Below are positions 10,743 through 46,430 of a stretch of DNA of 64,000 bases, piece by piece (the first letter of the stretch is position 1; every line of letters begins with the position of its first letter). The position numbers and the translations under genes were made by a program. Source of the DNA: Syntrophaceae bacterium (GTDB taxonomy: Bacteria; Desulfobacterota; Syntrophia; Syntrophales; PHBD01); NCBI GenBank assembly GCA_013177825.1, contig JABLXX010000004.1, forward strand, positions 101,990 through 165,989, in the 5' to 3' direction. The notes beneath the pieces were generated by a model, which saw only the letters and a list, made by a program, of their open reading frames with translations, was not told the DNA's origin and made no database searches.

Positions 10743-10746
10743 CGCC

Positions 10747-14569: not shown

Positions 14570-14573
14570 AAGG

Positions 14574-14610
14574 AAAAGGTGCCAGACACCTTTTCCCATT
14601 TTTTCTTTTC
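14574..14610 (+). terminator. probable rho-independent terminator after cobA/hemD
   Basis: AAAAGGTG ccaga CACCTTTT (8-bp stem 14574-14581 / 14587-14594) followed by the T-rich CCCATTTTTTCTTTTC. Confidence 0.5.
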
Positions 14611-14693
14611 TACCGGGAACTTTTTCCTTCTTCCTCCTGTCCAATCCTCCAAAAGGCAGCACCAAAATCCCAGGATGGAAGAAGGAGGAAGTC

Positions 14694-15488: not shown

Positions 15489-15525
15489 CAGGGCTCTGCC
15501 TATTCCTCCCGGGCGCCGGCTCGAA

Positions 15526-15563
15526 GACGGAGAAGGGGATTGCCGACAGTCCGTTTCTCCGTC
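15526..15563 (+). other. hairpin (9-bp perfect stem GACGGAGAA/TTCTCCGTC, 20-nt loop) downstream of the exported-protein gene
   Basis: Inverted repeat read at 15526-15534 and 15555-15563. There is no clear U-tract. Confidence 0.3.
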
Positions 15564-15673
15564 TCACTTTCCGGTTTCACTGATCGTGATTATCTCGGAT
15601 CGAAGTCCTCGGGGTTGATTTCCCGCCGGGGTTCCGGTAGGTAGATGTTTCCCTTTCGGGACGGGAAGGCGAT

Positions 15674-16855: not shown

Positions 16856-16866
16856 AGGAGGCGACG

Positions 16867-17841: not shown

Positions 17842-17856
17842 TTTTGCGGATAGCGA

Positions 17857-28037: not shown

Positions 28038-28844
28038 ATGGGCGACATGACAAAACATCCCATCGGCGTGTTCGACTCCGGCGTGGGAGGGCTCACGGTA
28101 GTGCGGGCGCTCATGGAGCGGCTCCCCTTCGAGGGCATCGTCTATTTCGGAGATACCGCCCGGGTTCCCTACGGCGTCAAGTCCGTCGAGACGGTGACCC
28201 AGTACGCCATCGAGATCACGGACTTCCTGCTGAAGAAGGGAGTCAAACTCCTCGTCATCGCCTGCAACACCGTCGCCGCCGTGGCCGGTGACGCCGTGCG
28301 GAGCCGCTCGCCCGTGCCGGTCCTGGACGTCATCGACGCCGGCGCCCGTTCCGCCGTCCGGGAGACACGCTCCCACCATGTCGGCGTCATCGGGACCCCC
28401 GCCACGATCAACAGCAACGCCTATGCCCGGGCCATTCATGCCCTCGATCCGGCGACCCGCATCTTTTCCCAGGCCTGTCCGCTTTTCGTGCCCCTCGTGG
28501 AGGAAGGGTGGCTCGATCACACAGTGACGCGGATCACGGCCAACGAATACCTGAAGCCCGTCCTGGCGGAGCACCTGGACACCCTGGTCCTGGGGTGCAC
28601 CCATTATCCCCTGCTGAAACCACTCCTCGGAGAGATCGCCGGTCCCGATGTTCACCTGGTGGATTCGGGGGAGGCGATGGCGGATGCCACGGCGGACCTC
28701 CTGACGGAGCTTCACCTGGGAAACCCGAGCCGGGAGAAGCCCTCCTATTCCTGCTATGTCAGCGACGTTCCTTTCCGGTTCCAGACCATGGCCGAGCGGT
28801 TTCTCGGCAGGACGATCGGCCACGTCGAGCTGGTGAAACTCTGA
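28038..28844 (+). CDS. murI: glutamate racemase
   Basis: ORF 28038..28844. IGVFDSGVGGLTV, the two catalytic Cys contexts IACNTVAA and LGCTHYPLL. Confidence 0.9.
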   Translation: MGDMTKHPIGVFDSGVGGLTVVRALMERLPFEGIVYFGDTARVPYGVKSVETVTQYAIEITDFLLKKGVKLLVIACNTVAAVAGDAVRSRSPVPVLDVIDAGARSAVRETRSHHVGVIGTPATINSNAYARAIHALDPATRIFSQACPLFVPLVEEGWLDHTVTRITANEYLKPVLAEHLDTLVLGCTHYPLLKPLLGEIAGPDVHLVDSGEAMADATADLLTELHLGNPSREKPSYSCYVSDVPFRFQTMAERFLGRTIGHVELVKL

Positions 28845-30080
28845 ATGATGGAACGGGTCGTTGTCACCGGACTGGGAACCCTCAACGCAACCGCCAAGAG
28901 CGCCCCTGTCTTCGCGCAGGCCCTGCGGGAGGGCCGCTGCGGGATCGGGCCGTTTTCGGTCTTCGATCCCTCGACGTTCCGGACACAGATCGCCGCGGAA
29001 GTGAAGGATTTCAATCCCCGCGACCACATCCCCCGGCCGTACCCGATCAAGCGCATGTCCCGGGCGGACCTTCTCGGATTCGCCGCGACCCTGGAGGCCC
29101 TGCAGGACGCCGGGCTAGCCCCGCTTTCGCCGGTACTGGCGGAGGAGACGGGCGTCGTCATCGGCGGAGGCGGGGGGGGGCTCCTGGAGGGGGAGCGGTT
29201 CTACGGCGAATACCTGCGCACGGAGGGCAGGCTGGCCCGCTTCTCTGCCCTGTCGGCGGTCTACTGCGCCTCATCGGCGGACCGGATCGCGAGCCTCCTG
29301 GGGCTCCGGGGACCCAAGACCACCTTCATGACGGCCTGCTCTTCCGGGGCCACCGCCGTCGGCTACGCCCGGGACCTGATCCGGAGCGGAGCAGCCCCGG
29401 TCGTCATCGCCGGCGGGACCGAGCCCCTCTGCCGCATCACCTACGCCGCTTTCAACGCTCTCCAGGCGGTGGACCCGGAACCCTGCAAGCCCTTCGCCGG
29501 AAACCGGGCGGGTCTTTCCCTGGGAGAGGCGGCGGGGATCCTGGTTCTCGAGTCCCTCGGACACGCCCGGGCCCGGGGGGCCCGGATCTATGCCGAGGTG
29601 CTGGGCTACGGCGTCACCTGCGACGCGCACCACATGACGGCCCCCGACCCGGAGGCCTCCGGGGCGGTCCGGTCGATGCGGGAGGCCCTGCGCGACGCCG
29701 GCGTTTCCGCGGAGCGGGTCGATTACGTCAACGCCCACGGCACCGCCACGCCGGCCAACGATGTCATGGAGAGCCGGGCCATCCGGCACGTCTTCGGCGA
29801 CCGGGCCGGGCGAATCCCCGTCAGCTCCACGAAGTCCATGACGGGCCATACCCTGGGCGCCTCGGGAGCCCTCGAGGCGGTCGCGTCCGTCCTGGCGATC
29901 CGCCACCGGTTCATCCCGCCGACGATCCACTGCACCGTGCCGGATCCCGAATGCGATCTCGACTATGTCACCGAGGGGGCGCGGGAAACGGACCTGGCGG
30001 TGATTCTGTCCAATTCCTTCGCCTTCGGGGGGAACAACACCTCGCTCGTCATCGGGCGGTTCGAAGGAGGGAACGGGTAG
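28845..30080 (+). CDS. beta-ketoacyl synthase (FabF/KAS II-like) with intact Cys-His-His triad
   Basis: ORF 28845..30080. The ATG abuts the murI TGA. Active-site contexts TACSSGATA (Cys), NAHGTATPAND (His), SMTGHTLGASG (His). Confidence 0.85.
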   Translation: MMERVVVTGLGTLNATAKSAPVFAQALREGRCGIGPFSVFDPSTFRTQIAAEVKDFNPRDHIPRPYPIKRMSRADLLGFAATLEALQDAGLAPLSPVLAEETGVVIGGGGGGLLEGERFYGEYLRTEGRLARFSALSAVYCASSADRIASLLGLRGPKTTFMTACSSGATAVGYARDLIRSGAAPVVIAGGTEPLCRITYAAFNALQAVDPEPCKPFAGNRAGLSLGEAAGILVLESLGHARARGARIYAEVLGYGVTCDAHHMTAPDPEASGAVRSMREALRDAGVSAERVDYVNAHGTATPANDVMESRAIRHVFGDRAGRIPVSSTKSMTGHTLGASGALEAVASVLAIRHRFIPPTIHCTVPDPECDLDYVTEGARETDLAVILSNSFAFGGNNTSLVIGRFEGGNG

Positions 30081-30081
30081 C

Positions 30082-31317
30082 ATGGACCGGCGCGTCGCGA
30101 TCACCGGCATCGGCATCGTCTCCCCCCTCAGCTCCGGCCGCGAGGCCTTCGGGAAGGCCCTTTTTGCCGGGGAAAGCGGGATCGCCCCCGTGACCGCATT
30201 TCCCGTGGAGGCGCTTTCCTGCCGGCTGGCGGCGGAAATCCGCGATTTCCAGGCGAGGGACTTCATCTCCGTCAAAAACCTCCGGCGCATGGACCGCCTC
30301 TCCGCCGTGGCGACGGCGGCGGCCCGGATGGCCTTGGACGACGCGGGGCTCGCCGTAACGCCGGCCAACCGGGACCGCACGGGCATGATCCTGGGGACGG
30401 CCTGGGGCGGCACCGACGTGACGGTCTCCTTTGCCCGGGTCCTGGTGACGGAGGGACCCGGATCCGCCAACCCGATCCTCGTGCCCAACGTGGTCATGAA
30501 CGCCCCGGCGGGGCATGCCTCCATCGAGCTGGGGTTCCGGGGGATCAATACGACGGTCAACCACTACGCCGTCTCGGCGGAGTCGGCCCTGGCCTACGGC
30601 GCTCAGGAGATCCGGCGGGGCGCCGCGGACGTCCTTCTGGCCGGCGGGGCCGACGTCCTGGCCCCTTTCTACTTCGAGTCCCTGACGCGCTTCAAGGCGC
30701 TGTCGCCCCTCCAGGGCGGGGGCTCCGAAGGCGCCCGCCCCTTCGACCTCCGGCGGAACGGGCCGGTGGCAGGGGAGGGCTGCGGGATCCTCTGCCTGGA
30801 GCCGCTGGATGCGGCCCGGGAGCGGGGCGCAACCGTCCATGCGGAGATCGTGGGGCAGGGCATGGCCTCTTCGCCGGCGCCCATGACCGGCTGGCCGGAG
30901 GACCCGCGGGGCCTTGTCCTGGCGGTCCGCCGGGCGCTCCGGTCCGCCGGTTGCGGGCCGGAGGACGTGGACGCCGTCTTCGCCGCCGCCAGCGGCGGCC
31001 TTCAGCCGGACCTCCTGGAGGCGGAAGGGCTGGAGCAGGTGTTCGGGCCAGGTGGAAAGATGCCGCTCGTGACGGCCCTGAAGGGCGCCCTCGGGGAGAG
31101 CTTCACCTCCGGGGGGATGCGGGCGGCGGCCTTGGCCCTGGCGCTCCGGGACGGCGCCGTGCCCCCCACCCTGGGACTGGAAGACCCGGTCCGGCCACTG
31201 AATATCGTGACGGGGCCGTCCGTCCGGGCGAATGTGCAAAGAGGACTCCTGAACGGGATCTCCCACGGGGGGAGCTACGTCTCCCTTCTGTTTTCCAATA
31301 TCGGGGAAGAATCATGA
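30082..31317 (+). CDS. ketosynthase-fold protein lacking the catalytic triad (chain-length-factor/KS-beta-like partner)
   Basis: ORF 30082..31317, 1 nt after the KS stop. Aligned by eye to the upstream KS: ACSSG becomes AVSAE, AHGTAT becomes AAASGG, TGHTLG becomes KGALGE. Cys, His and His are all replaced. Confidence 0.75.
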   Translation: MDRRVAITGIGIVSPLSSGREAFGKALFAGESGIAPVTAFPVEALSCRLAAEIRDFQARDFISVKNLRRMDRLSAVATAAARMALDDAGLAVTPANRDRTGMILGTAWGGTDVTVSFARVLVTEGPGSANPILVPNVVMNAPAGHASIELGFRGINTTVNHYAVSAESALAYGAQEIRRGAADVLLAGGADVLAPFYFESLTRFKALSPLQGGGSEGARPFDLRRNGPVAGEGCGILCLEPLDAARERGATVHAEIVGQGMASSPAPMTGWPEDPRGLVLAVRRALRSAGCGPEDVDAVFAAASGGLQPDLLEAEGLEQVFGPGGKMPLVTALKGALGESFTSGGMRAAALALALRDGAVPPTLGLEDPVRPLNIVTGPSVRANVQRGLLNGISHGGSYVSLLFSNIGEES

Positions 31318-32837
31318 ACATCGGAGAATGGATTGAAAAGAGGGCCTTTACCCACCCGGACCGGGAATTCCTGAAGGACGGTGAGCGGGCCTTCAGCAAC
31401 CGGGCCTTCAACGAGCGGGTCAACCGGACGGCCCGGGCGCTCCAGAACCTGGACATCGTGAAGGGCGAGCGCCTGGCGCTCATCATGGGCAACACGAGCG
31501 AATTCCTGGAGATCTTCTTCGCCTGCGCCAAGACGGGGGCCATCCTGGTGCCTGTGAACTACAGACTGGCGGGGCCGGAGATCGAATACATCCTCCGCGA
31601 CTCGGCCCCCCGGGGGCTCGTCTACGCCGTCGAGTTTGCCGAAAAGGCGGCTCCCCTCAAGGAGCCGGGCCTGGGGATCCGCCACTGGATCCGCCACGGC
31701 GGAGAGCCCCTTCCCGGGGAATCGCTCCTGTCGGACCTGACGGCGGCCGAGTCGGATGGCGAGCCAAGGCCGATGGAGGAAGTGACGGGCGAGGACCCCC
31801 TCTTCATTATGTACACCTCCGGAACGACGGGCGATCCGAAAGGGGCCGTCCTGACCCATGGGAACATCCTCTTCGGGGCCGTCCATTCCCTCATCGGCTA
31901 CGGCGTCAACCGGACCTACCGGTCCCTCGTCGTGGCGCCCCTCTTCCACATCGGCGCCCTGGCGGCGTCGGTCACGCCGGTCATCTACGCCGGCGGCTCC
32001 GTCGTCCTGTCGGGGTTCTTCAACGCCTCGGAAGTCCTCCTGACCATTGTCCGGGAGCGGATCAACTACATGTTCGCCGTCCCCGTCATGTTCCAGATCA
32101 TGGCGGACACGCCCGAGTGGGCCGGGGCGGACCTGTCCCACGTCCACTTCTTCATTTCCGGGGGGGCGCCGATCCCCCTCCCGGTCATCCGGAAGTACCA
32201 GGACGAGAAGGGGATCGGCTTCGTCCAGGGCTACGCCCTCACGGAGACGGGGCGGCTCACGTCGCTGGACCTGGAGGACGCCGTCCGGAAGGCCGGGTCC
32301 GTGGGCAAGGAGGTCTTCCACGTGCGGCTCCGCATCGTCGACGAGGAAGACCGGGACGTCGCCCCCGGGGAGCCCGGGGAGATCGTCGTGAAAGGTCCCA
32401 ATGTCTTCTCCGGCTACTGGCGGAAGCCGAAGGAAACTGCGGAGGCCAAGAAAGGCGGCTGGTTCCGGACGGGCGACATGGGGCGGCGGGACGAGGACGG
32501 ATTTCTCTACATCATCGGCCGCAAGGTGGAGATGATCATCTCCTCCGGGGAGAACATCTACCCCGCCGAGGTGGAGCGGGCGATCCAGTCCCTCCCGGCG
32601 GTGAAGGAAGCGGCGGCCGTGGGCATGCCGGACCCGAAGCGGGGAGAGGTGGTGGCGGCCTTCGTGCTGCTCAGGGAGGGCGAGGCTGTGACGGAGGAGG
32701 ACATCCTGGCAGGGCTCCAGGGGAAGATCGCCCCCTTCAAGATGCCGAAGCGGATTTTCTTCGTCGACTCCTTCCCGAGGAATCCCGGCGGCAAGATCCT
32801 CAAGCGCATCCTCCAGAAGCGCCTGCGGGAGGGATGA
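31314..32837 (+). CDS. acyl-CoA synthetase / acyl-adenylate-forming ligase (AMP-binding family)
   Basis: 3' part of ORF 30951..32837. ATG 31314 overlaps the upstream stop (ATGA). AMP motif MYTSGTTGDPKGA, TGDMGRRDEDGFLYIIGR, C-terminal PRNPGGKILKR. Confidence 0.85.
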   Translation: MNIGEWIEKRAFTHPDREFLKDGERAFSNRAFNERVNRTARALQNLDIVKGERLALIMGNTSEFLEIFFACAKTGAILVPVNYRLAGPEIEYILRDSAPRGLVYAVEFAEKAAPLKEPGLGIRHWIRHGGEPLPGESLLSDLTAAESDGEPRPMEEVTGEDPLFIMYTSGTTGDPKGAVLTHGNILFGAVHSLIGYGVNRTYRSLVVAPLFHIGALAASVTPVIYAGGSVVLSGFFNASEVLLTIVRERINYMFAVPVMFQIMADTPEWAGADLSHVHFFISGGAPIPLPVIRKYQDEKGIGFVQGYALTETGRLTSLDLEDAVRKAGSVGKEVFHVRLRIVDEEDRDVAPGEPGEIVVKGPNVFSGYWRKPKETAEAKKGGWFRTGDMGRRDEDGFLYIIGRKVEMIISSGENIYPAEVERAIQSLPAVKEAAAVGMPDPKRGEVVAAFVLLREGEAVTEEDILAGLQGKIAPFKMPKRIFFVDSFPRNPGGKILKRILQKRLREG

Positions 32838-33979
32838 TGGAGATCCTGCCCTGGACCGGTGAGCACCGGGCCTTCCGCGAGGAATTCCGCGGGTTCCTCG
32901 CCAGAGAGGTCATTCCCTTCGTGGACCGGTGGGAGGCCGACGGCATCGTTCCCCGGTCGGCCTGGCTGGCCATGGGCGCAGCAGGGTTTCTCTGCACCGA
33001 CGTGCCCCGGGAGTACGGCGGCCGCGGCCTCGATTTCCTCCATTCCGTCATCGTCGTGGACGAGATGGCGAAGACCAACTGCTACGGTCTCTCCCCGCGG
33101 CTCCACAGCAACGTGGTCGTCCCCTACATCACGTCCTTCGCCTCCGAAGAGCTCAAGCACCGCTACCTGCCAGGCTGCATCCGGGGCGAGATCGTCACCG
33201 GCATCGCCATGACGGAGCCCCACGCCGGGAGCGACGTGGCGGCCATCCGGACAAGTGCCGTGGAGGACGGCGATTTCGTGGTCCTGAACGGCCAGAAGAC
33301 CTTCATCTCCAACGGAACCAACGGCGACCTCTTCGTGGTGGCCGCGAAGGACCCGGCGACGGAGGACCCCCACCGGGCCGTGGACATCTACCTGGTGGAG
33401 GGGAAGACCCCGGGCTTCGAAAGGGGGCGCCGCCTGAAGAAGGCGGGCTGGCACAGCCAGGACACGACGGAGATCTTCTTCCACGACTGCCGGGTGCCCC
33501 TGACCCACCGCCTCGGCGGGAAGGGCTCGGGGTTCAAGAACCTGATGCGGCACCTCCAGCCGGAGCGCCTTGTCGTGGCCATCGGCGCCGTCTCCGCGGC
33601 GGAGTGGGTCCTGGAGCACACGATTTCCCACGTGAAGAAGACGGACGTCTCGGGGACGGCCCTGTCGTCGTTCCAGCACGTCCGCTTCGAGATCGCCGAA
33701 ATGGCTACGGAGGTCCAAATCGGCCGGACCTTCGTGGACAAGCTCATCGCCGACCACATCGAGGGGAAGAACGTCGTCCGGGAGGTCTCCATGGCCAAGT
33801 GGTGGACCACCGAGACGGCCTGGCGGATCGCCGACCGGTGCCTCCAGCTCCACGGCCGCCTGGGCCTCGACGAGAGCGGCCCCCTCGCCCGGGCCTGGCG
33901 GGACCTCCGCGTCACCCGCATCCTCGCCGGCACCAATGAAATCATGAAAGGCATCATCGCCCGGATGACGGGGATATAA
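32834..33979 (+). CDS. acyl-CoA dehydrogenase
   Basis: 3' part of ORF 32117..33979. ATG 32834 overlaps the ligase stop (ATGA). TGIAMTEPHAGSDVAA, QKTFISNG, C-terminal RILAGTNEIMKGIIAR. Confidence 0.85.
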   Translation: MMEILPWTGEHRAFREEFRGFLAREVIPFVDRWEADGIVPRSAWLAMGAAGFLCTDVPREYGGRGLDFLHSVIVVDEMAKTNCYGLSPRLHSNVVVPYITSFASEELKHRYLPGCIRGEIVTGIAMTEPHAGSDVAAIRTSAVEDGDFVVLNGQKTFISNGTNGDLFVVAAKDPATEDPHRAVDIYLVEGKTPGFERGRRLKKAGWHSQDTTEIFFHDCRVPLTHRLGGKGSGFKNLMRHLQPERLVVAIGAVSAAEWVLEHTISHVKKTDVSGTALSSFQHVRFEIAEMATEVQIGRTFVDKLIADHIEGKNVVREVSMAKWWTTETAWRIADRCLQLHGRLGLDESGPLARAWRDLRVTRILAGTNEIMKGIIARMTGI

Positions 33980-33988
33980 TGAGAAAAT

Positions 33989-34033
33989 AGGTCGGATTTA
34001 TTTTCTATGTTGCAGTGCAAAATAATCTGACCT
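33989..34033. repeat. imperfect inverted repeat in the only AT-rich spacer of the locus
   Basis: AGGTCGGATTTATTTT (33989-34004), a 14-nt loop, then AAAATAATCTGACCT (34019-34033). It lies between the ACAD stop and the first radical-SAM gene. Confidence 0.5.
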
Positions 34034-34049
34034 ACTTTTCGAGGGAGCC

Positions 34050-35159
34050 ATGAACGTCCGGATCGTCAACCTTCACCCGGGGTGCGAGAACAACGCCCTG
34101 TTTCTTTCCCGGGCCCGGCGCTACTTCGAGTTGAACGGCCACCGGGCCGGTGGCGAGAGGGAGGCGGACCTGGTGTTTGTGGGGGCCTGCGTCGTGACCG
34201 ACTGGATGCGCCGGCGGTGCGAGGAAGCCATCGCCGGGGCGATGCACAGCCATCCGCTGGCTCATTTCGTTGTCTTCGGCTGCCTGGCGGCCTTTCCCGG
34301 GGAACTGCAGGCGTGCCTCGGCGGGGAGGCCGCCCGGATCCGGTTCATCCCGTACGGAGCGAGCGCCGAACTGGACGCCCTCGTCGGGGCGCGCGTTCCT
34401 TTCGAGACCGTCCACGTCTCCCGTCTTGAAGGGCACCGTCCCTACCAGCCCCGCATGGGGCCGGATGACCGCTACCTCCTGATCTCCCAAGGTTGTGTCA
34501 ACGACTGCAGCTACTGCAGCATCCGGCTGGCCAAGGGGCGGGTCCGTAGCCGGCCGGCGGAGGAGATCGAGGCGGATGCCCGCGAACTGTACGATCAGGG
34601 CGTCCGGACCGTGACCCTGCTCGCGGACGACTGCGGCTCCTACGGCCTCGACCGGGACGACGACCTTCCGGGGCTGCTTGGCCGGATCTGCAGGATCGCC
34701 CCGGACCTCCGGATCAAGCTCTACACGGTGTTCCCGGCCCTGTTCCTGCAATACGCCGACCGGCTGGCACCGTTTTTCGCCGCCGGGCGCATCCCCTACG
34801 TCTGCCTGCCCGCCCAATCCGCATCCCCGCGCATCCTGGACCTGATGAACCGCCGCTACGACCCCGGCCGCCTGGCGGATGCGGTTCTCCGGCTCCGTGC
34901 CCTCGATCCCGGCGTCTTCGTCTATTCCCACTTCATCTTTGCCTTCCCAACGGAGACCTGGGAGGAGCTTGCGGAAAGCGTCTCCTTCGCCGGACTCTTC
35001 GATCACTCCGTCTTCATCGGCTATGGTGGAAACCGGGTGACCCGGGCGGCGGCCCTGGCCTCCCGGTGCGACGACGCCGACCGGCAGGCAAAAGCGGATT
35101 ACCTGGGGCGACTGGTGGCGGAAGGAAAGCTCGCCTCGTTCGTGGTGCCCTATGCCTGA
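34050..35159 (+). CDS. radical SAM protein, methylthiotransferase-like (UPF0004 N-domain + rSAM core) without TRAM domain, paralogue A
   Basis: ORF 34050..35159, 369 aa, RBS GAGGGAG. N-terminal Cys at 12, 47 and 78 (MTTase spacing). Core GCVNDCSYCSIRLAKGRVRSR. The protein ends about 30 aa after the barrel. Confidence 0.75.
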   Translation: MNVRIVNLHPGCENNALFLSRARRYFELNGHRAGGEREADLVFVGACVVTDWMRRRCEEAIAGAMHSHPLAHFVVFGCLAAFPGELQACLGGEAARIRFIPYGASAELDALVGARVPFETVHVSRLEGHRPYQPRMGPDDRYLLISQGCVNDCSYCSIRLAKGRVRSRPAEEIEADARELYDQGVRTVTLLADDCGSYGLDRDDDLPGLLGRICRIAPDLRIKLYTVFPALFLQYADRLAPFFAAGRIPYVCLPAQSASPRILDLMNRRYDPGRLADAVLRLRALDPGVFVYSHFIFAFPTETWEELAESVSFAGLFDHSVFIGYGGNRVTRAAALASRCDDADRQAKADYLGRLVAEGKLASFVVPYA

Positions 35160-36318
35160 TCCCGCAGCGGCCCCGAAGCCCGGCATCTTCGTCTTCAACC
35201 CGAGCCGGCGCTGCGCCCCCGGCGCATACCTCTTTACCCAGGCGGTCCGCTTCTTCCTCCTGAACGGCCACCCCCTGGTGCGGGACGTCCGGGACGCCGG
35301 GATCATCCTCGTGAACTCCTGCTGCGTCACGGAGGGAAAGATCGGCACGTCCCTGGCGGCGCTCGAGACGGCCAGGAGTCACGGGAAGGGGAAGAGCGTG
35401 GTTCTCCTGGGCTGCCTGGCCGGCCTGCCGGACACCCCGTTCGATCCGGAGGGGGTGTTGTGCGTCGGGCCGAAGGACCTGGACCTTCTCGATACGCATT
35501 TTCCAAACCGGATCCCTGTCCGGGCGGCCGCGGCGAGCCGCCTGCCGCCGGAGTTCTTCCTGCCGGGACAGCACCTCGGTCCGCAGGACGCCTTCCTCTT
35601 CATCGGCCAGGGATGCGTGAACGCCTGTTCCTACTGCAACATCCGCCGCGCGAAGGGAGGCCTGTCGAGCGTGCCCGTGGAGTCGATCCTCTCCCGGGCC
35701 CGCAGCGGGCTCGAACGAGGCGTGCGGGAATTCGCCCTGCTGGCGGATGACTGCGCCAGCTACGGCCGGGACATCGGGAGCGACCTGGTCGATCTGATCG
35801 GGGGGCTCCTCGGGCTGGACGGCGGCTTGTCGCTCAAGCTGAGCTACGTGTTCCCATCCTTCGTGGAGGATCGCTTCGACGATCTGGCGCCGCTCTTTGC
35901 CACCGGGCGCATCCGCTACGCGAACATCCCGCTCCAGTCGGGCTCGCAGCGCATCCTGGACCTGATGAACCGGCGCTATCCCATCGGCCGGGTCGTGGAG
36001 CGCGTGCGACGGCTCCGGGAGATCGCGCCCCGGTCGCTCCTCTGTACCCATGTCCTCATCAATTTTCCCACGGAGACCCGGGAGGACTTCCGGGCGTCCC
36101 TGGCCCTGGCGGACGCCTTCCGCGACACGTACTTTCTCCACTATTCGGACAACCGGGGGACTCCCGCGGCCCGGCTGGAGCCGAAGGTCCCGCCGGAGGA
36201 GGCGCTGCGGCGGCTGGACGCCGCCTCGGACTTCGTGAACGCCCGGGGGCGGGGGGTGGTGATCCGGGATTTCGACTGCGATCTGCCCTATAACGTCAGC
36301 CGGGATCGGGGTGCCTGA
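35152..36318 (+). CDS. radical SAM protein, methylthiotransferase-like without TRAM domain, paralogue B
   Basis: ORF 35152..36318, 388 aa, with an 8-nt overlap on A. N-terminal Cys at 21, 57 and 88. Core GCVNACSYCNIRRAKGG. Shares LLADDCxSYG, ILDLMNRRY and FPTET with paralogue A. Confidence 0.75.
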   Translation: MPDPAAAPKPGIFVFNPSRRCAPGAYLFTQAVRFFLLNGHPLVRDVRDAGIILVNSCCVTEGKIGTSLAALETARSHGKGKSVVLLGCLAGLPDTPFDPEGVLCVGPKDLDLLDTHFPNRIPVRAAAASRLPPEFFLPGQHLGPQDAFLFIGQGCVNACSYCNIRRAKGGLSSVPVESILSRARSGLERGVREFALLADDCASYGRDIGSDLVDLIGGLLGLDGGLSLKLSYVFPSFVEDRFDDLAPLFATGRIRYANIPLQSGSQRILDLMNRRYPIGRVVERVRRLREIAPRSLLCTHVLINFPTETREDFRASLALADAFRDTYFLHYSDNRGTPAARLEPKVPPEEALRRLDAASDFVNARGRGVVIRDFDCDLPYNVSRDRGA

Positions 36319-37834
36319 CATGGCCCTGCCGCTCATCAAGGTCGTCCAACTCACCCTGACCAACCGGTGCCAGTTGAGCTGCCAACACTGCGGGGTGGCG
36401 GAGCTCAGAAACGTCATGCCCGGCGAGCTGACCCTGGAGCAGATCGACGATGTCTTCCGGGACCTCCGGCTGGCCGGCTGCCTGGTGGTGGATCTCTTCG
36501 GCGGCGAGCCGACGCTCAGGAAGGACCTGTTCGAGATCATCCGGCGCGGAAAGGCCTCCGGATTCATGATGTCCCTGGAGACGAACGGCTGGCTCCTGGA
36601 CGGGGCCTTCGTCCGGGAGCTGGAAGCGGCGGGCCTGAACCAGATCTACCTCAGCCTGGACGATTCCCGCCCGGAGGAGCATGACCGGCGGAGGGGAAGG
36701 GCGGGGAGCTTCGAGCGGGCCGTCCGGGCGTTGGAGCTGGGGGCGGCGACCTCCATGGCCGTGCATGTCTCCATCGTGCCGCAGACGGCCGAATTCTTCA
36801 CCGGCGGTGCCATGAACCGGTTCATGGCCTTCGTCCTGGCGAAGGGGGCCGAAAAGGTGCGGCTCCTCCTGCCCCGCTTTTCCGGCCGGTCGGCCCATCC
36901 AGACGGGACTCCCTTTGCGGCCCGCCGGGAGCGGGATCTCTTCGCCTGCATCGCCCCGGAGTACGCCCCCCACATTTACGTTCACACGCCGGGAACGCCG
37001 TTGGGAGAGACGAATAAGTGCACGGCCAAGAACATCTTCTGCCACATCATGAGCAACGGCTGGATCGCCCCCTGCCCGTACCTTCCCCTCGTCTTTGGCG
37101 ATGCGACCCGGGAATCAGTCGTAGAGGTGTTCGAGCGGATGCAGTCCCATCCGCTGGTTCGGCTGGGCGGCGACACCTGCCCGATGCGGAATCCCGACTA
37201 CATCGAGGAGCACATCCGGCCGATGGGCACGGGACGTCCCTTCTATCCCGTTGCCTCGAAAAACCAGGTGGATCTCGGCGCCCCCTGCCCGCCGGACTGC
37301 CGCGGCTGCGATGCCGCCGGAAGGCCGTCGCGCAGGCCCGCCGAGGCGGTGATCCGCGACCTTCAGGCCGTGGACCCGAACTACCGGAGCATCGAGTTCT
37401 ACGGCGGGGACGCGCTGCTCCGGGCCGATCTGATCGGCATCCTTGGCCGCGTTCCCCCGGGCATGGATATCCGCCTCTGGACCACGGGAAGCTGGCTGCC
37501 GGAGGATCCGGGGTTCCGGGAACAGTTACGTTCCTTTCCCGTCCGCGCCATCCGGGTGATGATGCCGCTTGGCGAGGCGGGGACACCGGGCGGCCTGGGA
37601 GACGCTCTCGGACGGATCCGGGCCGTGCAGGGGCTGGGCATCCCCATCCATCTGTACGCCCCGGCGGACGCCCCGGCGGAGGCGCACCGGATTGTGGCCG
37701 AAAACGCGGCCCGTCTGGGGGTGGAGCGGATCTATCTCTTCCGCCGGGATCCGGTGTCGCCCCTGTCGAACGCAGTCGCCTGTTTCGGCAGGGCCCTCGG
37801 CCGGGCAAGGCTTGCCTGGGCCGCCCGACCATAA
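36311..37834 (+). CDS. radical SAM protein with SPASM/twitch-like Cys cluster and a C-terminal second CxxxCxxC module
   Basis: ORF 36311..37834 (GTG 36311 overlaps B by 8 nt; alternative ATG 36320). CQLSCQHC plus GGEPTL. Auxiliary CTAKNIFCHIMSNGWIAPCPY...GDTCP. A second CPPDCRGC (nt 37286-37309) is followed by YGGDALL. Confidence 0.75.
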   Translation: MPDMALPLIKVVQLTLTNRCQLSCQHCGVAELRNVMPGELTLEQIDDVFRDLRLAGCLVVDLFGGEPTLRKDLFEIIRRGKASGFMMSLETNGWLLDGAFVRELEAAGLNQIYLSLDDSRPEEHDRRRGRAGSFERAVRALELGAATSMAVHVSIVPQTAEFFTGGAMNRFMAFVLAKGAEKVRLLLPRFSGRSAHPDGTPFAARRERDLFACIAPEYAPHIYVHTPGTPLGETNKCTAKNIFCHIMSNGWIAPCPYLPLVFGDATRESVVEVFERMQSHPLVRLGGDTCPMRNPDYIEEHIRPMGTGRPFYPVASKNQVDLGAPCPPDCRGCDAAGRPSRRPAEAVIRDLQAVDPNYRSIEFYGGDALLRADLIGILGRVPPGMDIRLWTTGSWLPEDPGFREQLRSFPVRAIRVMMPLGEAGTPGGLGDALGRIRAVQGLGIPIHLYAPADAPAEAHRIVAENAARLGVERIYLFRRDPVSPLSNAVACFGRALGRARLAWAARP

Positions 37835-37879
37835 AAAAAACAGGCCCGGTTCAATGCCTCTCCTGCAGGAGGAGGCGGA

Positions 37880-37975
37880 ATGGCGCGAATTCACGGGACG
37901 ATGCCCGATTATGCCGCAAGCCGGGGGAATTTTTCATTGTATTTTGGGAGATGGATAGGTATACGGCCATACTAA
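37880..37975 (+). CDS. candidate 31-codon micro-ORF (MARIHGTMPDYAASRGNFSLYFGRWIGIRPY) downstream of the radical-SAM trio
   Basis: Not on the ORF track (too short). ATG 37880 lies 4 nt after a strong AGGAGGAGG (37867-37875), stop TAA 37973-37975. Aromatic-rich, with locally low GC. Coding status is unproven. Confidence 0.3.
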   Translation: MARIHGTMPDYAASRGNFSLYFGRWIGIRPY

Positions 37976-38057
37976 TCGTCCAGGCACACCCGGTCTTCGC
38001 GGTGAGGAATCATCGGCGGAGACCGCAGGAATCCACGCGGGGAGGGAAGGTTCCGAA

Positions 38058-38234
38058 ATGCAGGAAATCTTGACGGCCGTCACCTACCTGTTGGTCTGGC
38101 TCCTCTGCGAGCGGGTCATCGGGATCGAGAGCGGACTGGTGAATCTGGTTGTCTCGCTGGGGGCGGCCGTGGGCGTTTACGTCTTCATCGCCGTCCGGGA
38201 CCACCGCAAGAAGAAAGAAAACGGAGAGCCCTAG
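38058..38234 (+). CDS. candidate 58-aa two-helix membrane micro-protein
   Basis: Not on the ORF track (<60 aa). ATG 38058 lies 7 nt after GGGGAGGGAAGG. MQEILTAVTYLLVWLLCERVIGIESGLVNLVVSLGAAVGVYVFIAVRDHRKKKENGEP has two hydrophobic helices and a basic tail. Codon usage matches the host. Confidence 0.45.
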   Translation: MQEILTAVTYLLVWLLCERVIGIESGLVNLVVSLGAAVGVYVFIAVRDHRKKKENGEP

Positions 38235-38334
38235 CGGACGCCGGTTTCGAATCCACGAAGACCAGTGCCGCCGCCGTCACCGCCGGTCTCATCCGCCGCT
38301 CGGCCGTTTCAGCGGCGAACGCAGGATGAAGGCC

Positions 38335-38363
38335 CGTCCCTGTGCCGGGACGCCGGATTTTTC
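38335..38363 (+). terminator. weak terminator-like hairpin with T5 run closing the plus-strand gene block
   Basis: CGTCCC tgtgcc GGGACG, then CCGGA TTTTT (T-run 38359-38363). The stem is short, so confidence is low. Confidence 0.35.
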
Positions 38364-42005: not shown

Positions 42006-45000
42006 GTGGCTCAATCAAGCGAAAAAATCGGTGCGGTCATGGTAGTGGGGTCCGGAATCGCCGGCATTCAGGCGTCCCTGGATCTGGCAAACTCCGGCTT
42101 GAAAGTTTATCTGGTGGAAAAAGGCATCAGCATCGGCGGCGTCATGGCCCAGCTGGACAAGACCTTTCCCACCAACGACTGTTCTGCCTGTATCCTTTCC
42201 CCGAAGCTGGTGGAAGTGGGCCGCCATCCCAACGTGGAGATTCTCACCCGGCGGACCGTAGAATCCGTAGAGGGTGAGCCGGGCCGCTTCAAGGTCCGGA
42301 TGACGAAGGCGCCGCGGTTCGTCGACCTCTCCAAGTGCACCGGCTGCGGCGACTGTGCCAATGTCTGCCCCATCTCCGTTCCTTCCGACTTCAACGAAAA
42401 CTTGAGCGAGCGGAAGGCCACCTATCGGCATTTTCCCCAGGCCATTCCCAGCGGCTTCGCCATCGACAAGCTCGGCACCTCCCCCTGCAAGGCGAACTGC
42501 CCCACCCACATCAGCGTGCAGGGCTACGTCGCCCTCATCGCCACGGGGAAATTCAAGGAAGCCCTGAAGCTCATCAAAAAAGACAACCCGTTCCCCATCG
42601 TCTGCGGCCGGGTCTGCAACCATCCCTGCGAGACCGCCTGCATGCGAGGCAAAGTCGACGAGCCCATCGACATCATGCACCTGAAACGGTTCGTGGCCGA
42701 TCTCGACCTGAAGGACGAGACCCGCTACATCCCCGACAAGAAGGAGAGCAAGGGCAAGAAGGTGGCCGTCGTCGGCGCCGGCCCCGCCGGCCTGACCTGC
42801 GCCTACTACCTGGCCGCCGAAGGCTATGACGTCGAGGTCTTCGAATCCCTCCCCGTCGCCGGCGGCTGGCTGGCAGTGGGCATTCCCGAGTACCGGCTTC
42901 CCAAGGATGTCCTGAAGGCCGAGATCAAGGTCATCGAGGACCTGGGGGTCAAGATCCACCTGAACAGACCCGTGGGCAAGGACCTCCCCTTCGCCCAGCT
43001 CCAGAAGGACTTCGATGCCGTCTTCATCGGCTGCGGAACCGTCAACAGCAGCAAGCTGAACATCCCCGGGGAAGACATGCAGGGCGTCATCCATGGCGTC
43101 GATTACCTGAAGCGGGTGAACCTGGGCGAGAAAGTCTTCCTGGGCGACAAGGTCGCCGTCGTCGGCGGCGGGAACGTCGCCATGGACGCCGTCCGGACGG
43201 CCATCCGTACGGGCTCGAAAGACGTCTTCATACTCTACCGCCGGTCCCGGGCCGAAATGCCCGCCTCGCCGGAGGAGATCGAAGAGGCCCTGGAAGAGGG
43301 CATCAAGATGGAATTCCTCGTGGCCCCCAAGCGGGTCGTGGGGGAAGGCGGCAAGGTCACGGGCATCGAGTGCACCCGGATGGAACTTGGCGAGCCCGAC
43401 GCCAGCGGGCGCAGGCGGCCCATCGAGATCAAGGGCTCCGAGTTCATCGTCCCCTGCGACGCCTTGATTCCCGCCATCGGCCAGGAGGCGGACCTTGATT
43501 TCGTGCCTGCCGAGAGCGGCATCTCCATCAACAAATGGAAGAACTTCGACGTCGACGCGGTCACCTTCGCGACGAACGTCCCCGGCGTTTTCGCCGGTGG
43601 CGACGTGGTCACGGGACCCCAGACGGTCGTCAAGGCCGTCTTTGCCGGGAAGGAAGCGGCGGTGTCCATCGACCGGTATCTCCAAGGCGAGGACATGGCG
43701 GCGGGCCGGGCCAAGGACTGGACGAAGGATCTGGCCGACAAGGCCGACGTGAGCGCCGTTCCAAAGGCCCCCCGGGTCAAATATCCCCACATGAAGCCCG
43801 ACGAGCGGCGGACGACCTTCCAGGAAGTCGGCATCGGCTTCGGCGAGGAGGAGGCCGTCCGGGAAGCCCAGCGCTGCCTGGCCTGCGGCATCTGCTCCGA
43901 GTGCTACCAGTGTGTCGACGCCTGCATCGCCGGCGCCATCAAGCATGACGATACATTTGAGGAAGAGACCATCGAGGTCGGCGCCGTCATCGCCGCCCCG
44001 GGCTTCGAGACCTTCGACGCCTCCATCCGTGGGGAATACGGCTTCGGCACCTACGCGAACGTCGTGACGGCCATCCAGTTCGAGCGGATCCTTTCCGCCT
44101 CGGGTCCCTACTTCGGCCACGTCCAGCGCATCTCCGACGGCAAGGAGCCCAAGAAGATCGCCTTCATCCAGTGCGTGGGCTCCCGGGACACCTCCTGCGG
44201 TAACAGCTGGTGCTCCTCCGTGTGCTGCATGTACGCTACGAAGGAGGCCATCATCGGCAAGGAGCACGCCAAGGAACTGGAGCCGACGATCTTCTTCATG
44301 GACATCCGGGCCCATGGAAAGGATTTCGACCGGTTCGTCAACCGGGCAAAGAACGAATACGGGATCCGATACATCCGCTCCATGCCCTCCAGCGTGAAAG
44401 AGCTCCAGCAGTCCAAGAACCTGCTCCTCAAGTACGTCACCGAGGACGGCAAACTCGTCGAGGAAGAATTCGAGATGGTGGTCCTCTCGGTGGGTCTGAC
44501 ACCTCCCCCGGAGGCGGCGAAGCTTGCCAAGGCCCTCGGGATCGACCTCGAAGAGCACGGATTCTGCCGGACCGCCCTTGAGAATCCCGTCGAGACCAGC
44601 CGGAACGGTGTCTTTGTCTGCGGTGCCTTCGGCGGTCCCAAGGACATCCCCGAGACGGTCATGGAAGCATCGAGCGCCGCGGCATGCGCCGCCGGTCTCC
44701 TGTCGGAACGCCGCGGAACGATGATCACCGAGGAGGAATTGCCTCTGGAGACGGACATCCGCGGGGTCGGTCCCCGGACAGGCGTTTTCGTCTGCCACTG
44801 CGGCATCAACATCGGCGGCGTGGTCGATGTTCCGGGAGTCGTTGAGTACGCCAAGACCCTGCCCAACGTGGTCTTCGCCACGGATAACCTCTTCACCTGT
44901 TCCCAGGACACGGCTGTGAAGATGGGCGAGGTCATCAAGGAACAGAACCTGACGCGCGTCGTTGTCGCCTCCTGCTCCCCCCGGACCCACGAGGGTCTTT

Positions 45001-46430
45001 TCCAGGAGAACTGTGAGAAGGCGGGACTCAACCGCTACCTCTTCGAGATGGCAAACATCCGGGACCAGGATTCGTGGGTCCACATGCACGAGCCCGAGGC
45101 GGCCACCGAGAAGGCCAAGGACCTGGTCAGAATGTCCATCGCCAAAGCCCAGTTCCTGAAGCCCCTGAAGCCGGGACAGCTGGGCGTCAACAAGAACGTC
45201 CTCATCATCGGCGGAGGGCTCGCGGGCATTACGGCGGCCCTCTCCTTTGCGGACCAGGGATTCAAGTCCTACATCGTCGAGAAGAAGCCGTCCCTGGGCG
45301 GCAACTACGCGAGCCTCTACTACACCCTCGAGGGGCTGGACACGAAGAAGCACCTGGCCGGCCTGATCGACCGGGTGAAGAAGAGCGAGCTGATCCAGGT
45401 CTATACGGGGACGGAGATCAAGAAGATCGAGGGCTTCATCGGCAACTACAAAACCACCGTCGCCACCCGGGACGGAGAAGAACAGTTCGAGCACGGCGTG
45501 GTCGTCGTGGCCACCGGCGGCTATGAGCTGGAGACCAAGGAATACCTGTACGGCCAGTCTGACCGCGTGCTGACCCAGCGCGACCTGGAGAAGTTGATCG
45601 CGGAGAAGGATGCAAAGGCCGCGGCAGCCAAGAGCGTCACGATGATCCAGTGCGTGGGCTCCCGCATCCCCGAGCGGCCCTACTGCAGCCGCTACTGCTG
45701 CTCCGAGGCGATCAAGAACGCCCTGAAGCTCAAGGAAATGGACCCGGAGAAGGATGTCACGGTCATATACCGCGACATCCGGACCTTCGGTCTCAAGGAA
45801 GACTTCTACAAGAAGGCCAGGGAGCTGAATGTCAAGTTCGTCCGCTACGACGAGGACCGGAAACCCGAAGTGAGGGCCGAGGGGGACAAGCTGGTGATCC
45901 GGCTGCTCGATCCCATCCTCAACGAGACGGTGGAACTGAAGACGGATCTCCTGGCGCTCAGCGTCGGCACTGTTCCGAATCCGGAGAATGAAGAAATCGG
46001 CAAGATGCTGAAGGTGCCGACCAACCAGGACGGATTCTTCCTGGAGGCCCACGTGAAGCTCCGCCCGGTCGATTTTGCCACCGACGGCGTCTTCATGTGC
46101 GGCATGGCCCATGCGCCGAAACTGAGCGAGGATTCGATCGTTCAGGCAAACGCCGCGGTCTCCAGGGCCTGCACGATCCTGACGAAGGACTTCATCGAGG
46201 CCGAGGGCAAGACGGCCTATGTCAACAAAGAGCGGTGCGCCGCCTGTGGGCTCTGCGAGGTCAACTGTCCCTTCAGCGCCATCGCCGTGGATCTTGCCGA
46301 AGGATGCGCGGCGGTCAATACCGTCCTTTGCAAGGGCTGCGGGGTCTGCACGGCCTCCTGCCGCATGAACGCAGTAGACCTCAACGGTTTCAACAACGAA
46401 GAGGTGCTGGCGCAGATCGCCGCCCTGTAA
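42006..46430 (+). CDS. giant HdrA-type flavoprotein with inserted GltD/NfnB-like NAD(P)H module and duplicated HdrA core (HdrL-type)
   Basis: ORF 42006..46430 (GTG), 1474 aa. Domain order read by eye: (1) HdrA FAD start VMVVGSGIAGIQASLDLA. (2) GltD-like insert: CGRVCNHPCETAC, VAVVGAGPAGLTCAYYLA, VAVVGGGNVAMD, VFAGGDVV. (3) HdrA core: IQCVGSRD, CSSVCCMYATKEA, VFVCHCGINIGG. (4) Second repeat: VLIIGGGLAGITAAL, IQCVGSRIPERPYCSRYCCSEA. (5) C-terminal CAACGLCEVNCP and CKGCGVCTASC. Confidence 0.85.
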   Translation: MAQSSEKIGAVMVVGSGIAGIQASLDLANSGLKVYLVEKGISIGGVMAQLDKTFPTNDCSACILSPKLVEVGRHPNVEILTRRTVESVEGEPGRFKVRMTKAPRFVDLSKCTGCGDCANVCPISVPSDFNENLSERKATYRHFPQAIPSGFAIDKLGTSPCKANCPTHISVQGYVALIATGKFKEALKLIKKDNPFPIVCGRVCNHPCETACMRGKVDEPIDIMHLKRFVADLDLKDETRYIPDKKESKGKKVAVVGAGPAGLTCAYYLAAEGYDVEVFESLPVAGGWLAVGIPEYRLPKDVLKAEIKVIEDLGVKIHLNRPVGKDLPFAQLQKDFDAVFIGCGTVNSSKLNIPGEDMQGVIHGVDYLKRVNLGEKVFLGDKVAVVGGGNVAMDAVRTAIRTGSKDVFILYRRSRAEMPASPEEIEEALEEGIKMEFLVAPKRVVGEGGKVTGIECTRMELGEPDASGRRRPIEIKGSEFIVPCDALIPAIGQEADLDFVPAESGISINKWKNFDVDAVTFATNVPGVFAGGDVVTGPQTVVKAVFAGKEAAVSIDRYLQGEDMAAGRAKDWTKDLADKADVSAVPKAPRVKYPHMKPDERRTTFQEVGIGFGEEEAVREAQRCLACGICSECYQCVDACIAGAIKHDDTFEEETIEVGAVIAAPGFETFDASIRGEYGFGTYANVVTAIQFERILSASGPYFGHVQRISDGKEPKKIAFIQCVGSRDTSCGNSWCSSVCCMYATKEAIIGKEHAKELEPTIFFMDIRAHGKDFDRFVNRAKNEYGIRYIRSMPSSVKELQQSKNLLLKYVTEDGKLVEEEFEMVVLSVGLTPPPEAAKLAKALGIDLEEHGFCRTALENPVETSRNGVFVCGAFGGPKDIPETVMEASSAAACAAGLLSERRGTMITEEELPLETDIRGVGPRTGVFVCHCGINIGGVVDVPGVVEYAKTLPNVVFATDNLFTCSQDTAVKMGEVIKEQNLTRVVVASCSPRTHEGLFQENCEKAGLNRYLFEMANIRDQDSWVHMHEPEAATEKAKDLVRMSIAKAQFLKPLKPGQLGVNKNVLIIGGGLAGITAALSFADQGFKSYIVEKKPSLGGNYASLYYTLEGLDTKKHLAGLIDRVKKSELIQVYTGTEIKKIEGFIGNYKTTVATRDGEEQFEHGVVVVATGGYELETKEYLYGQSDRVLTQRDLEKLIAEKDAKAAAAKSVTMIQCVGSRIPERPYCSRYCCSEAIKNALKLKEMDPEKDVTVIYRDIRTFGLKEDFYKKARELNVKFVRYDEDRKPEVRAEGDKLVIRLLDPILNETVELKTDLLALSVGTVPNPENEEIGKMLKVPTNQDGFFLEAHVKLRPVDFATDGVFMCGMAHAPKLSEDSIVQANAAVSRACTILTKDFIEAEGKTAYVNKERCAACGLCEVNCPFSAIAVDLAEGCAAVNTVLCKGCGVCTASCRMNAVDLNGFNNEEVLAQIAAL

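Follow-up and report, generated by a model that had tools for sequence, protein, structure and literature searches.

Does a run of genes that places two ketosynthase genes just upstream of three radical S-adenosylmethionine (radical-SAM) genes encode a single pathway, or have two systems come to lie side by side? The question is raised by a same-strand gene run at 28038-38234, followed by a terminator-like hairpin, in a 64-kb stretch of DNA from a Syntrophaceae bacterium (contig JABLXX010000004.1, positions 101,990 to 165,989; the whole analysed stretch is called the window). Genes were identified by open reading frame (ORF) listing, translation, and profile searches. The initial annotation had treated the run as one tailoring locus, in which the radical-SAM enzymes modify the product of the ketosynthases, an acyl ligase, and an acyl-CoA dehydrogenase (ACAD), and had kept a separate role for the radical-SAM genes in reserve. 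The comparative data favour the latter. With a probability of about 0.6, we interpret the 10-kb run as two conserved cassettes, independent of each other, that have become neighbours in this lineage only. Cassette A (28845-33979) would be a type II condensing module composed of an active ketosynthase (KS1), an inactive paralogue (KS2), the ligase, and the ACAD, and cassette B (34050-37834) an autonomous radical-SAM trio, rs1-rs2-rs3.

The two cassettes are regarded as separate because they never co-occur outside one clade. Trio loci were gathered from the neighbourhoods of encoding contigs, from one genome per GTDB species, and from a metagenome scan, and were mapped by tblastn with the window proteins; neighbourhoods were compared over 10 kb on each side. 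The collection scans used short exact peptide patterns, by which diverged loci can be missed, so that absence is not proof. Orthologue families of rs2 and rs3 were clear at 50-65% identity. None of 19 non-identical trio loci outside the clade, each extending 3 kb or more upstream of the trio, contained a ketosynthase, AMP-ligase, or ACAD gene related to those of the window. KS2 had more than 120 orthologue clusters among the matches listed (56-64% identity, including the isolate Syntrophus gentianae), and the KS1-KS2 pair was accompanied by a ligase orthologue in all six outside loci sampled, at cassette identities of 60-69%; the trio was not found within 10 kb in any of these six KS2-orthologue loci. 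The halves adjoin only in Syntrophaceae metagenome-assembled genomes (MAGs) with about 90% protein identity to the window (L001/2/8, L006, L007, L030, and L031), and their co-location appears to be recent and lineage specific. The halves do not co-occur beyond this genus-level clade, which is essentially the outcome that the initial annotation had itself named as telling against a single tailoring locus, and that proposal is not supported. Several taxonomic labels in this comparison derive from MAG bins and are unreliable. Trio contigs binned as 'Pedobacter sp.' (L015 / L054) and 'Methanobacteriota archaeon' (L010) carry genes 70% identical to Geobacteraceae-type loci and are probably mis-binned.

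The features of the run are as follows, in window coordinates.

28038..28844, + strand: murI, glutamate racemase (TIGR00067, 230.9 bits against a cut-off of 146.65, passed)
28845..30080, + strand: KS1, active FabF-type ketosynthase (Pfam ketoacyl-synt N and C domains)
30082..31317, + strand: KS2, chain-length-factor-like inactive ketosynthase paralogue (ketosynthase fold by Pfam, triad replaced)
31314..32837, + strand: AMP-forming acyl-CoA (or acyl-carrier) ligase (Pfam AMP-binding and AMP-binding_C)
32834..33979, + strand: ACAD of the LCAD/IVD type (three ACAD Pfam domains)
33980..34049, no strand: ACAD/rs1 junction, 70 nucleotides (nt), variable and AT-rich (spacer comparison across relatives)
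34050..35159, + strand: rs1, TRAM-less methylthiotransferase-like radical-SAM protein (UPF0004 and Radical_SAM)
35152..36318, + strand: rs2, second TRAM-less methylthiotransferase-like radical-SAM protein (UPF0004 and Radical_SAM)
36320..37834, + strand: rs3, tandem double radical-SAM protein with a twitch/SPASM-like Cys-rich insert (frame open from GTG 36311)
38058..38234, + strand: 58-aa small membrane protein (conserved in the clade only; no family match)
38335..38362, + strand: terminator-like hairpin with a T-run, end of the same-strand run (terminator scan)

The junction between the cassettes varies within the clade. The spacer is about 31 nt in L006 and L007, and the 70 nt of the window include an extra AT-rich stretch of 45 nt. 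In L001, L030, and L031 the junction instead holds a 2.2-kb insertion encoding a HEC-01 pair, located at L001:6843-8730 and at about 5.6-7.7 kb in L030 and L031, with matches of 567 bits to the HEC-01A ATPase and 293 bits to HEC-01B/DUF4276. This insertion, placed exactly between ACAD and rs1, is a candidate anti-phage defence system. In the window, a promoter and terminator scan of 33.7-38.5 kb found no terminator and no strong promoter at the ACAD/rs1 junction. As a separate observation, the KS1 gene of a close relative is represented by two separate ORFs in its JGI assembly (L002:1573-2807), as it is in L031, and in L006 both KS1 and ACAD align in two pieces (3381-4768 and 7525-8867). These breaks could be assembly or frameshift errors or could mark incipient decay of cassette A in some strains.

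The initial annotation had drawn attention to ten tightly packed same-strand genes. The ORFs and most of the junctions were confirmed: the murI TGA and KS1 ATG abut at 28842-28847, a 1-nt gap lies at 30081, ATGA overlaps occur at 31314-31317 and 32834-32837, and rs1 and rs2 overlap by 8 nt (35152-35159). A further 8-nt overlap that had been claimed between rs2 and rs3 (36311-36318, from GTG 36311) is probably not real. Because all rs3 orthologues begin with 'MALPL', the true rs3 start is most likely ATG 36320, after a 1-nt gap behind the rs2 stop. Tight spacing is not distinctive here, as the haem operon at 9.9-15 kb, though unrelated, shows gene spacing that is no looser. The first gene, murI, is a housekeeping neighbour that belongs to neither cassette; no murI lies upstream of the KS cassette in Syntrophus or in the other KS loci. 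Within the clade, ratios of nonsynonymous to synonymous substitution (dN/dS) of 0.10-0.22 indicated purifying selection on all nine genes, with a value of 0.35-0.41 for the 58-aa ORF; the range for rs1-rs3 (0.14-0.22) equalled that of murI.

The two micro-ORFs noted earlier fared differently. The 34-aa ORF (37855-37959) is disrupted by indels in close relatives. The 58-aa ORF is 86-95% identical in L001, L006, and L007; it had no NCBIfam match, was not present in any other trio locus examined, and is a clade-specific gene that stands outside the conserved trio. A non-coding block upstream of it (37925-37995, GGGGAATTTTTCNTTGNNTTTTGG...TAGGTATACGGCCATACT) is conserved in all four clade members compared, and may be its own promoter or another regulatory element. 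The hairpin at 38335-38362 is retained in L007 and was not present in L001 or L006. A convergent Zn-alcohol dehydrogenase gene ends at 38390.

What kind of module is cassette A? The claim that an active ketosynthase lies next to a dead one was upheld. KS1 retains the Cys-His-His triad (motifs TACSSG, DAHH, and NAHGTAT), whereas alignment to Thermus thermophilus FabF showed that the Cys/His/His triad is replaced by Val/Pro/Ala in KS2. KS1 scored 417.8 bits on PRK07314, above its cut-off of 387; on the fabF equivalog TIGR03150 (cut-off 493.75 bits), KS1 (424.4 bits) and KS2 (285.6 bits) both fell below. KS2 orthologues (~60% identity) were always paired with a KS1 orthologue, and the pair was conserved in all six outside loci. 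By analogy with known pairs, KS1 and inactive KS2 would form a heterodimer resembling a ketosynthase and chain-length factor (KS/CLF).

The other two proteins of cassette A look individually ordinary. The ligase scored 465.7 bits on NF004837, just under the cut-off of 476, and its closest solved structures are the feruloyl-/fatty-acyl-CoA synthetase 8wev/8weu and FadD13. In each of the six outside loci the KS pair has a ligase orthologue with it (64-69% identity), which is adjacent in four and 5-6 kb downstream in L107 and L108. All three ACAD domains (N, middle, and C) exceeded their Pfam cut-offs and no equivalog cut-off was reached; the best PDB matches were Geobacillus 2pg0 (415 bits) and human LCAD. 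The Glu of its 'QPERLV' motif aligns with the LCAD/IVD-type catalytic base, and Ala occupies the position of MCAD Glu376, as in 2pg0.

The surroundings of the outside orthologues place cassette A in a wider family. S. gentianae and two other genomes (L027, L028, and L109) carry it as a stand-alone quartet that includes the ACAD, at 60-67% identity. In three other Desulfobacterota (L029, L107, and L108) the ACAD is lacking, and the KS pair and ligase sit inside large clusters of lipid or pigment type. L029 encodes an ApeP-like dehydratase, an FlxB-like ketoreductase (296 bits against a cut-off of 340), a LolA2_flexi-like protein, a thioesterase, a glycosyltransferase, an MMPL-methyltransferase fusion, an LpxL-type acyltransferase, and B12 radical-SAM proteins. 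L107 and L108 share an ApeP-like dehydratase, two acyl carrier proteins (ACPs), a phytoene-desaturase-like oxidase, a PlsC-type acyltransferase, a third KS of the PRK09116 type, a ketoreductase, and LolA, and L108 also has B12 radical-SAM enzymes. By gene content these three clusters appear to belong to the aryl-polyene/flexirubin family, in a layout that resembles the anammox 'Cluster I' proposed for ladderanes. The B12 radical-SAM neighbours were tried against the 'ladderane' family TIGR04072 (cut-off 360 bits) and rejected, at 46 bits in L029 and 81 bits in L108. The earlier statement that the run does not have an aryl-polyene layout thus holds for the window, but elsewhere in Desulfobacterota clusters of the aryl-polyene/flexirubin/ladderane-like kind include orthologues of KS1, KS2, and the ligase (61-69% identity), embedded among their typical genes. 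None of the other typical genes of aryl-polyene/flexirubin clusters is in the window, where an ACAD has been added. Searches of the 64 kb, tblastn with the L108 proteins among them, found no ACP, ketoreductase, dehydratase, LolA, or MMPL gene, in agreement with the initial annotation.

An active KS beside a triad-less paralogue is likewise found in amxFabF2/amxFabFmut of anammox Cluster I, Iga11/Iga12, ApeO/ApeC, and ActI. The anammox pair is described as a KS/CLF-like heterodimer that decarboxylates malonyl-ACP, with Cys changed to Val in the FabFmut of most anammox species (2026 preprint, bioRxiv 10.64898/2026.05.19.726425). KS2 shows this same Cys-to-Val change. FabF and chain B of PDB 9s5h were the best matches of KS1, and the two chains of that entry (B, a KS, and C, a triad-less KS) were among the best matches of KS1 and KS2, respectively; from the Cys-to-Thr position described for Scalindua, 9s5h is presumably the structure of the anammox FabF paper. 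KS1 and KS2 are no closer to 9s5h or anammox-type proteins than to ordinary FabF, with similar bit scores. Because canonical FabFs score equally well, the resemblance to the anammox pair is one of analogy, not orthology. The L107 and L108 orthologues are found with ACPs, a dehydratase, and a phytoene-desaturase-like protein as in Cluster I, together with B12 radical-SAM proteins in L108, whereas genes for an ACP, dehydratase, desaturase, or B12 radical-SAM protein are all lacking from the window cassette, which carries an AMP-ligase and ACAD instead. No B12 radical-SAM gene was found anywhere in the window, and rs1 scores 22.5 bits on TIGR04072.

We regard cassette A as a new addition to the KS/CLF-type condensing pairs found in aryl-polyene and ladderane-like clusters. 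In the mechanism we envisage, the ligase would activate a carboxylic-acid starter, which KS1/KS2 would prime and/or extend, the malonyl-ACP coming from housekeeping fatty-acid synthesis; the LCAD-type ACAD might then desaturate or reduce the acyl thioester, placing an alpha,beta double bond or removing one.

What, then, does cassette B encode? Its first two products, rs1 (369 aa) and rs2 (388 aa), are 40% identical to each other and resemble methylthiotransferases, for which a three-domain architecture of UPF0004, radical-SAM, and C-terminal TRAM domains has been defined (PMC10702137). MiaB, MtaB, and RimO are their best family and structure matches and share with them an N-terminal UPF0004 domain bearing three Cys and a central CX3CX2C radical-SAM motif (CVNDCSYC in rs1 and CVNACSYC in rs2). 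Unlike these enzymes, rs1 and rs2 fall under all curated cut-offs and form a paralogous pair that is always linked, and sometimes fused, to rs3. They also lack TRAM, as had been noticed from the sequence: Pfam detected no such domain in either protein, and their TIGR00089 matches (153.8 bits for rs1 and 180.9 for rs2, cut-off 251) end at model position 354-361 of 429 (361 for rs1). Pfam UPF0004 matches were weak (22.8 and 25.5 bits). A profile of the rs2 family matched RimO 4jc0 and MiaB 7mjz over the methylthiotransferase and radical-SAM domains only, stopping before TRAM. All 25 rs1 orthologues keep Cys12/47/78 for the auxiliary cluster and Cys149/153/156 for the radical-SAM cluster; in rs2, Cys21/57/88 and Cys155/159/162 are invariant, the first three across 34 orthologues. 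Because the N-domain cysteines and the CX3CX2C motif are invariant in both, each protein should bind the two clusters typical of methylthiotransferases. Wherever a locus includes the sequence upstream of rs3, rs2 comes directly before it, with two exceptions: no rs2 was detected in L048, and L058 is rearranged. The order is 1-2-3, or 2-3-1 in Geobacteraceae-like loci.

The third protein, rs3, had been called a SPASM enzyme, a description that may hold in part. An AlphaFold2 model built on 30 homologues (pLDDT 88.4) resembles SPASM/twitch enzymes: the N-terminal two-thirds gave SkfB, BlsE, SuiB, MoaA, and CteB as best Foldseek matches, as well as anSME (E 1e-13 to 1e-9; TM-scores 0.34-0.46 over the query), and its barrel and Cys-rich auxiliary-cluster segment superpose on those of SkfB, SuiB, CteB, anSME, PqqE, BlsE, and MoaA. 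Pfam SPASM made no call on the whole protein and reached 19.5 bits on the excised segment, below the cut-off of 21.5. Unlike SPASM/twitch enzymes, rs3 continues into an additional C-terminal third that bears an invariant CX3CX2C of its own. Residues ~319-476 contain this second motif (Cys326/330/333) followed by 'YGGDALLR' (GGD). The three cysteines match a further radical-SAM motif more closely than they do the SPASM pattern CX2CX5CX3C. In hhalign, the C-terminal third aligned with the N-terminal radical-SAM domain motif on motif (probability 97.9%, E = 5e-13), and the Pfam Radical_SAM match to it was weak and in the right register. Cys20/24/27, Cys237/244/255/290, Cys326/330/333, and Cys491 are all invariant, and a CX5GX4C-like motif is present. 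Hence rs3 is a tandem double radical-SAM protein whose second domain is a radical-SAM-like half-barrel, and the three genes together encode four radical-SAM domains.

No curated family claims rs3, its best NCBIfam score being 102 bits against a cut-off of 500. A HMMER scan of 1.84 billion 50%-cluster representatives returned about a dozen full-length rs3 relatives, with 45 matches below 1e-30. Two assignments were tried and rejected. Similarity to Tes/GDGT-MAS or Mss-type lipid synthases covers the generic radical-SAM core only (79 bits against 450; TM-score over the query 0.34), and an AhbD/NirJ-type haem enzyme is contradicted by 102 bits against a cut-off of 500 and by true Ahb-like genes upstream in the window.

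Natural fusions tie the three proteins together. Domains like rs2 and rs3 are joined in P0322 (881 aa) and P0365 (897 aa); P0366 (1260 aa) combines another radical-SAM domain, an rs2-like domain, and rs3; and P0461 (934 aa) joins an rs3-like domain to a B12 radical-SAM domain. Because such fusions exist, the trio enzymes are expected to act as one assembly on one substrate, and rs1-rs2-rs3 would form a single multi-[4Fe-4S] complex.

The best clues to that substrate come from the trio's neighbours in other genomes. In 14 of the 19 outside loci the trio lies within an 'extended' cluster of ~10 genes (for example, L024:5772-15442, L026:4821-13125, and L016:94-14557, and also L034, L044, L059, and L062). 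These clusters encode a 300-aa HxsC-like radical-SAM protein, a B12-binding radical-SAM protein, a Methyltransf_2-type O-methyltransferase with a dimerisation domain, a 288-aa protein (X288), an 'XC' protein consisting of one or two copies of an orphan domain and often fused to DUF3467, and one to two free DUF3467 proteins of ~110 aa; in one locus the O-methyltransferase is itself fused to DUF3467. Geobacteraceae-like loci add a daptide-type M50 intramembrane protease fused to HlyD, a second HlyD-like protein, and a SecA-like ATPase. The clusters also show a weak U32-like segment, two of their enzyme-sized families have no recognised fold, and they include no lipid gene. Neither X288 nor the XC domain had a match in Pfam, NCBIfam, or PDB, and X596 had none in Pfam; hhalign detected no homology between X288 and the XC domain. 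The extended-cluster proteins score far below curated family cut-offs. These features suggest a peptide or protein maturation and export system resembling those of ribosomally synthesised peptides that are modified after translation (RiPPs), and the DUF3467 proteins are no more than candidates for the precursor. In two loci (L024 and L026) the extended cluster adjoins giant proteins of more than 4000 aa.

In composition, the extended trio cluster resembles multi-radical-SAM peptide-maturation cassettes such as HxsB/HxsC and the proteusin type with B12 methyltransferases. Unlike them, it has no recognised precursor family, RiPP recognition element (RRE), or known maturase equivalog, and none of the accessory genes of such cassettes is in the window. 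The initial annotation did not class the run as a classical RiPP cluster, and no precursor gene lies next to the maturases there. As in the window, the trio stands alone in four other lineages (L003, L005, L012, and L025). Small-ORF listings around ten trio loci showed no conserved small ORF, and there was no precursor candidate in the window or in the trio-only loci. Searches of the window by tblastn with DUF3467, O-methyltransferase, and XC proteins found no extended-cluster accessory gene in its 64 kb. One Thermodesulfobacteriota variant (L025:7566-13756) encodes one more methylthiotransferase paralogue, its third, of 410 aa; next to it comes an EFR1-family flavodoxin/ferredoxin fusion, which is a plausible dedicated reductant for the trio.

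The radical-SAM genes were also thought to be undescribed, and they remain so: no NCBIfam cut-off was reached, and neither the trio nor the extended cluster is described in NCBIfam, Pfam, PDB, or the literature searched (DUF3467; methylthiotransferase with RiPP, SPASM, or TRAM). The trio keeps strict synteny across phyla and spans Syntrophales, Desulfatiglandaceae, Geobacteraceae, Methylomirabilis, Ignavibacteria, and others. We tentatively propose, at less than even odds, that its four radical-SAM domains, probably with six or more [4Fe-4S] clusters, are the core of an undescribed biosynthetic system spread across anaerobes, in which the TRAM-less methylthiotransferases would have a target other than tRNA or ribosomal protein S12, which would yield a peptide, protein, or cofactor that is multiply thiolated, methylthiolated, or crosslinked, and which X288, XC, and DUF3467 (a possible carrier, recognition element, or substrate) would complete in most lineages. 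The trio complex would insert sulfur or methylthio groups into a peptide or protein substrate and crosslink its unactivated carbons. The substrate would be encoded elsewhere and, in most lineages, would be processed further by the larger RiPP-like cluster.

Alternatively, the trio may act on a small molecule, such as a thiolated or methylthiolated cofactor, a quinone, or another metabolite, independently of cassette A. The trio-only loci, with neither candidate precursor nor protease, would fit this view, as would the small-molecule-type O-methyltransferase, the weak U32-like segment, and the two enzyme-sized families without a known fold in the extended clusters; the structural neighbours of rs3 moreover include BlsE and MoaA, which act on small molecules. 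However, the HxsC-like radical-SAM protein, the daptide-type protease-HlyD, the SecA-like ATPase, and the multi-copy ~110-aa DUF3467 proteins would more typically be found in systems that mature peptides or proteins, and the trio has no conserved partner gene specific to a small-molecule pathway. A small-metabolite substrate therefore seems less likely than a peptide or protein, and we consider this alternative unlikely, though a serious rival.

Could the two cassettes nonetheless form one pathway, in which the trio functionalises an acyl chain supplied by the ligase, KS pair, and ACAD? Such a scheme would parallel the combination of a FabF pair and radical-SAM enzymes proposed for ladderanes. 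Lipid clusters that pair a KS and dead KS with radical-SAM enzymes do exist, and ladderanes and jawsamycin are, among ketoacyl lipids, the only ones for which radical-SAM modification has been proposed (2026 review, PMC13459092). Several points weigh against the reading of two independent cassettes. The halves are same-strand neighbours, separated by 31-70 nt in three genomes, with no terminator predicted between them, and all clade members sampled retain this arrangement; co-transcription and a locally recruited function in the window's clade are therefore conceivable. No ACP gene accompanies cassette A in the window. No precursor peptide, RRE, or protease lies next to the trio in the window or in other trio-only loci, and for this reason a peptide or protein substrate is inferred from the extended clusters. 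Yet the halves are apart in all 19 trio and six KS loci outside the ~90%-identity clade, the HEC-01 cassette splits them in several genomes while both remain under purifying selection, and the usual partners of the trio are of the peptide type with no lipid gene. Furthermore, the radical-SAM enzymes of KS-linked lipid clusters are of the B12 type, not the methylthiotransferase type. On this balance a single pathway is quite improbable, and two independent cassettes remain the preferred interpretation.

It is very improbable that the trio consists of housekeeping tRNA or ribosomal-protein methylthiotransferases of the MiaB/MtaB/RimO type with a helper enzyme. MiaB, RimO, and MtaB are indeed the best matches of rs1 and rs2, whose homologues carry the JGI automatic names MiaB, RimO, or CDKAL1. 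Yet 154 and 181 bits fall far short of the general-family cut-off of 251, neither protein has a TRAM domain, and the linkage to rs3 and to genes of secondary-metabolism type is obligatory. The distribution is also sparse and patchy, with about a dozen of 185,579 species genomes in the pattern-based scan and about a dozen rs3 50%-cluster representatives. Equally hard to sustain is the idea that the trio in the window's clade is a functionless, decaying remnant of a larger cluster, since, although the clade lacks all extended-cluster accessory genes within the 64 kb, dN/dS for rs1-rs3 is the same as for murI, all cluster-binding cysteines are kept except the non-essential Cys22 of rs3, and trio-only loci recur in at least four other lineages.

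Elsewhere in the window, three further features were observed. A sirohaem-dependent haem operon (9927-18972), unrelated to the run studied here, encodes a cytochrome c assembly protein, hemA, hemC, a cobA-hemD fusion, and two radical-SAM/SPASM proteins resembling AhbC and AhbD. Rfam and tRNA scans of the window found a tRNA-Phe gene at 6.7 kb only (6723-6798) and nothing in the locus itself; beside this gene, a stretch at 4001-6800 with 41% GC, compared with ~65% elsewhere, contains a lipocalin-like gene (4714-5400) and an ORF without a family, and may be a horizontally acquired islet. At 42006-46430, a 1474-aa flavoprotein/Fe-S oxidoreductase (GltD/HdrA-like Pyr_redox, Fer4_20, and FAD_oxidored) is conserved beside the locus in relatives.

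In sum, a FabF and dead FabF beside radical-SAM genes mimic the ladderane-type logic of lipid tailoring by radical-SAM enzymes, but the adjacency here is probably a recent, lineage-specific accident. In Syntrophales, the KS/CLF-ligase(-ACAD) cassette appears to be a widespread and unstudied relative of aryl-polyene and ladderane condensing pairs. The more interesting part of the run is the radical-SAM trio, which we regard as a genuine, conserved, and uncharacterised system. All characterised methylthiotransferases modify tRNA or ribosomal protein S12. If our proposal is correct, a TRAM-less pair locked to a double radical-SAM partner would extend methylthiotransferase chemistry to a new class of substrate, and environmentally abundant anaerobes would possess a new multi-radical-SAM maturation system.

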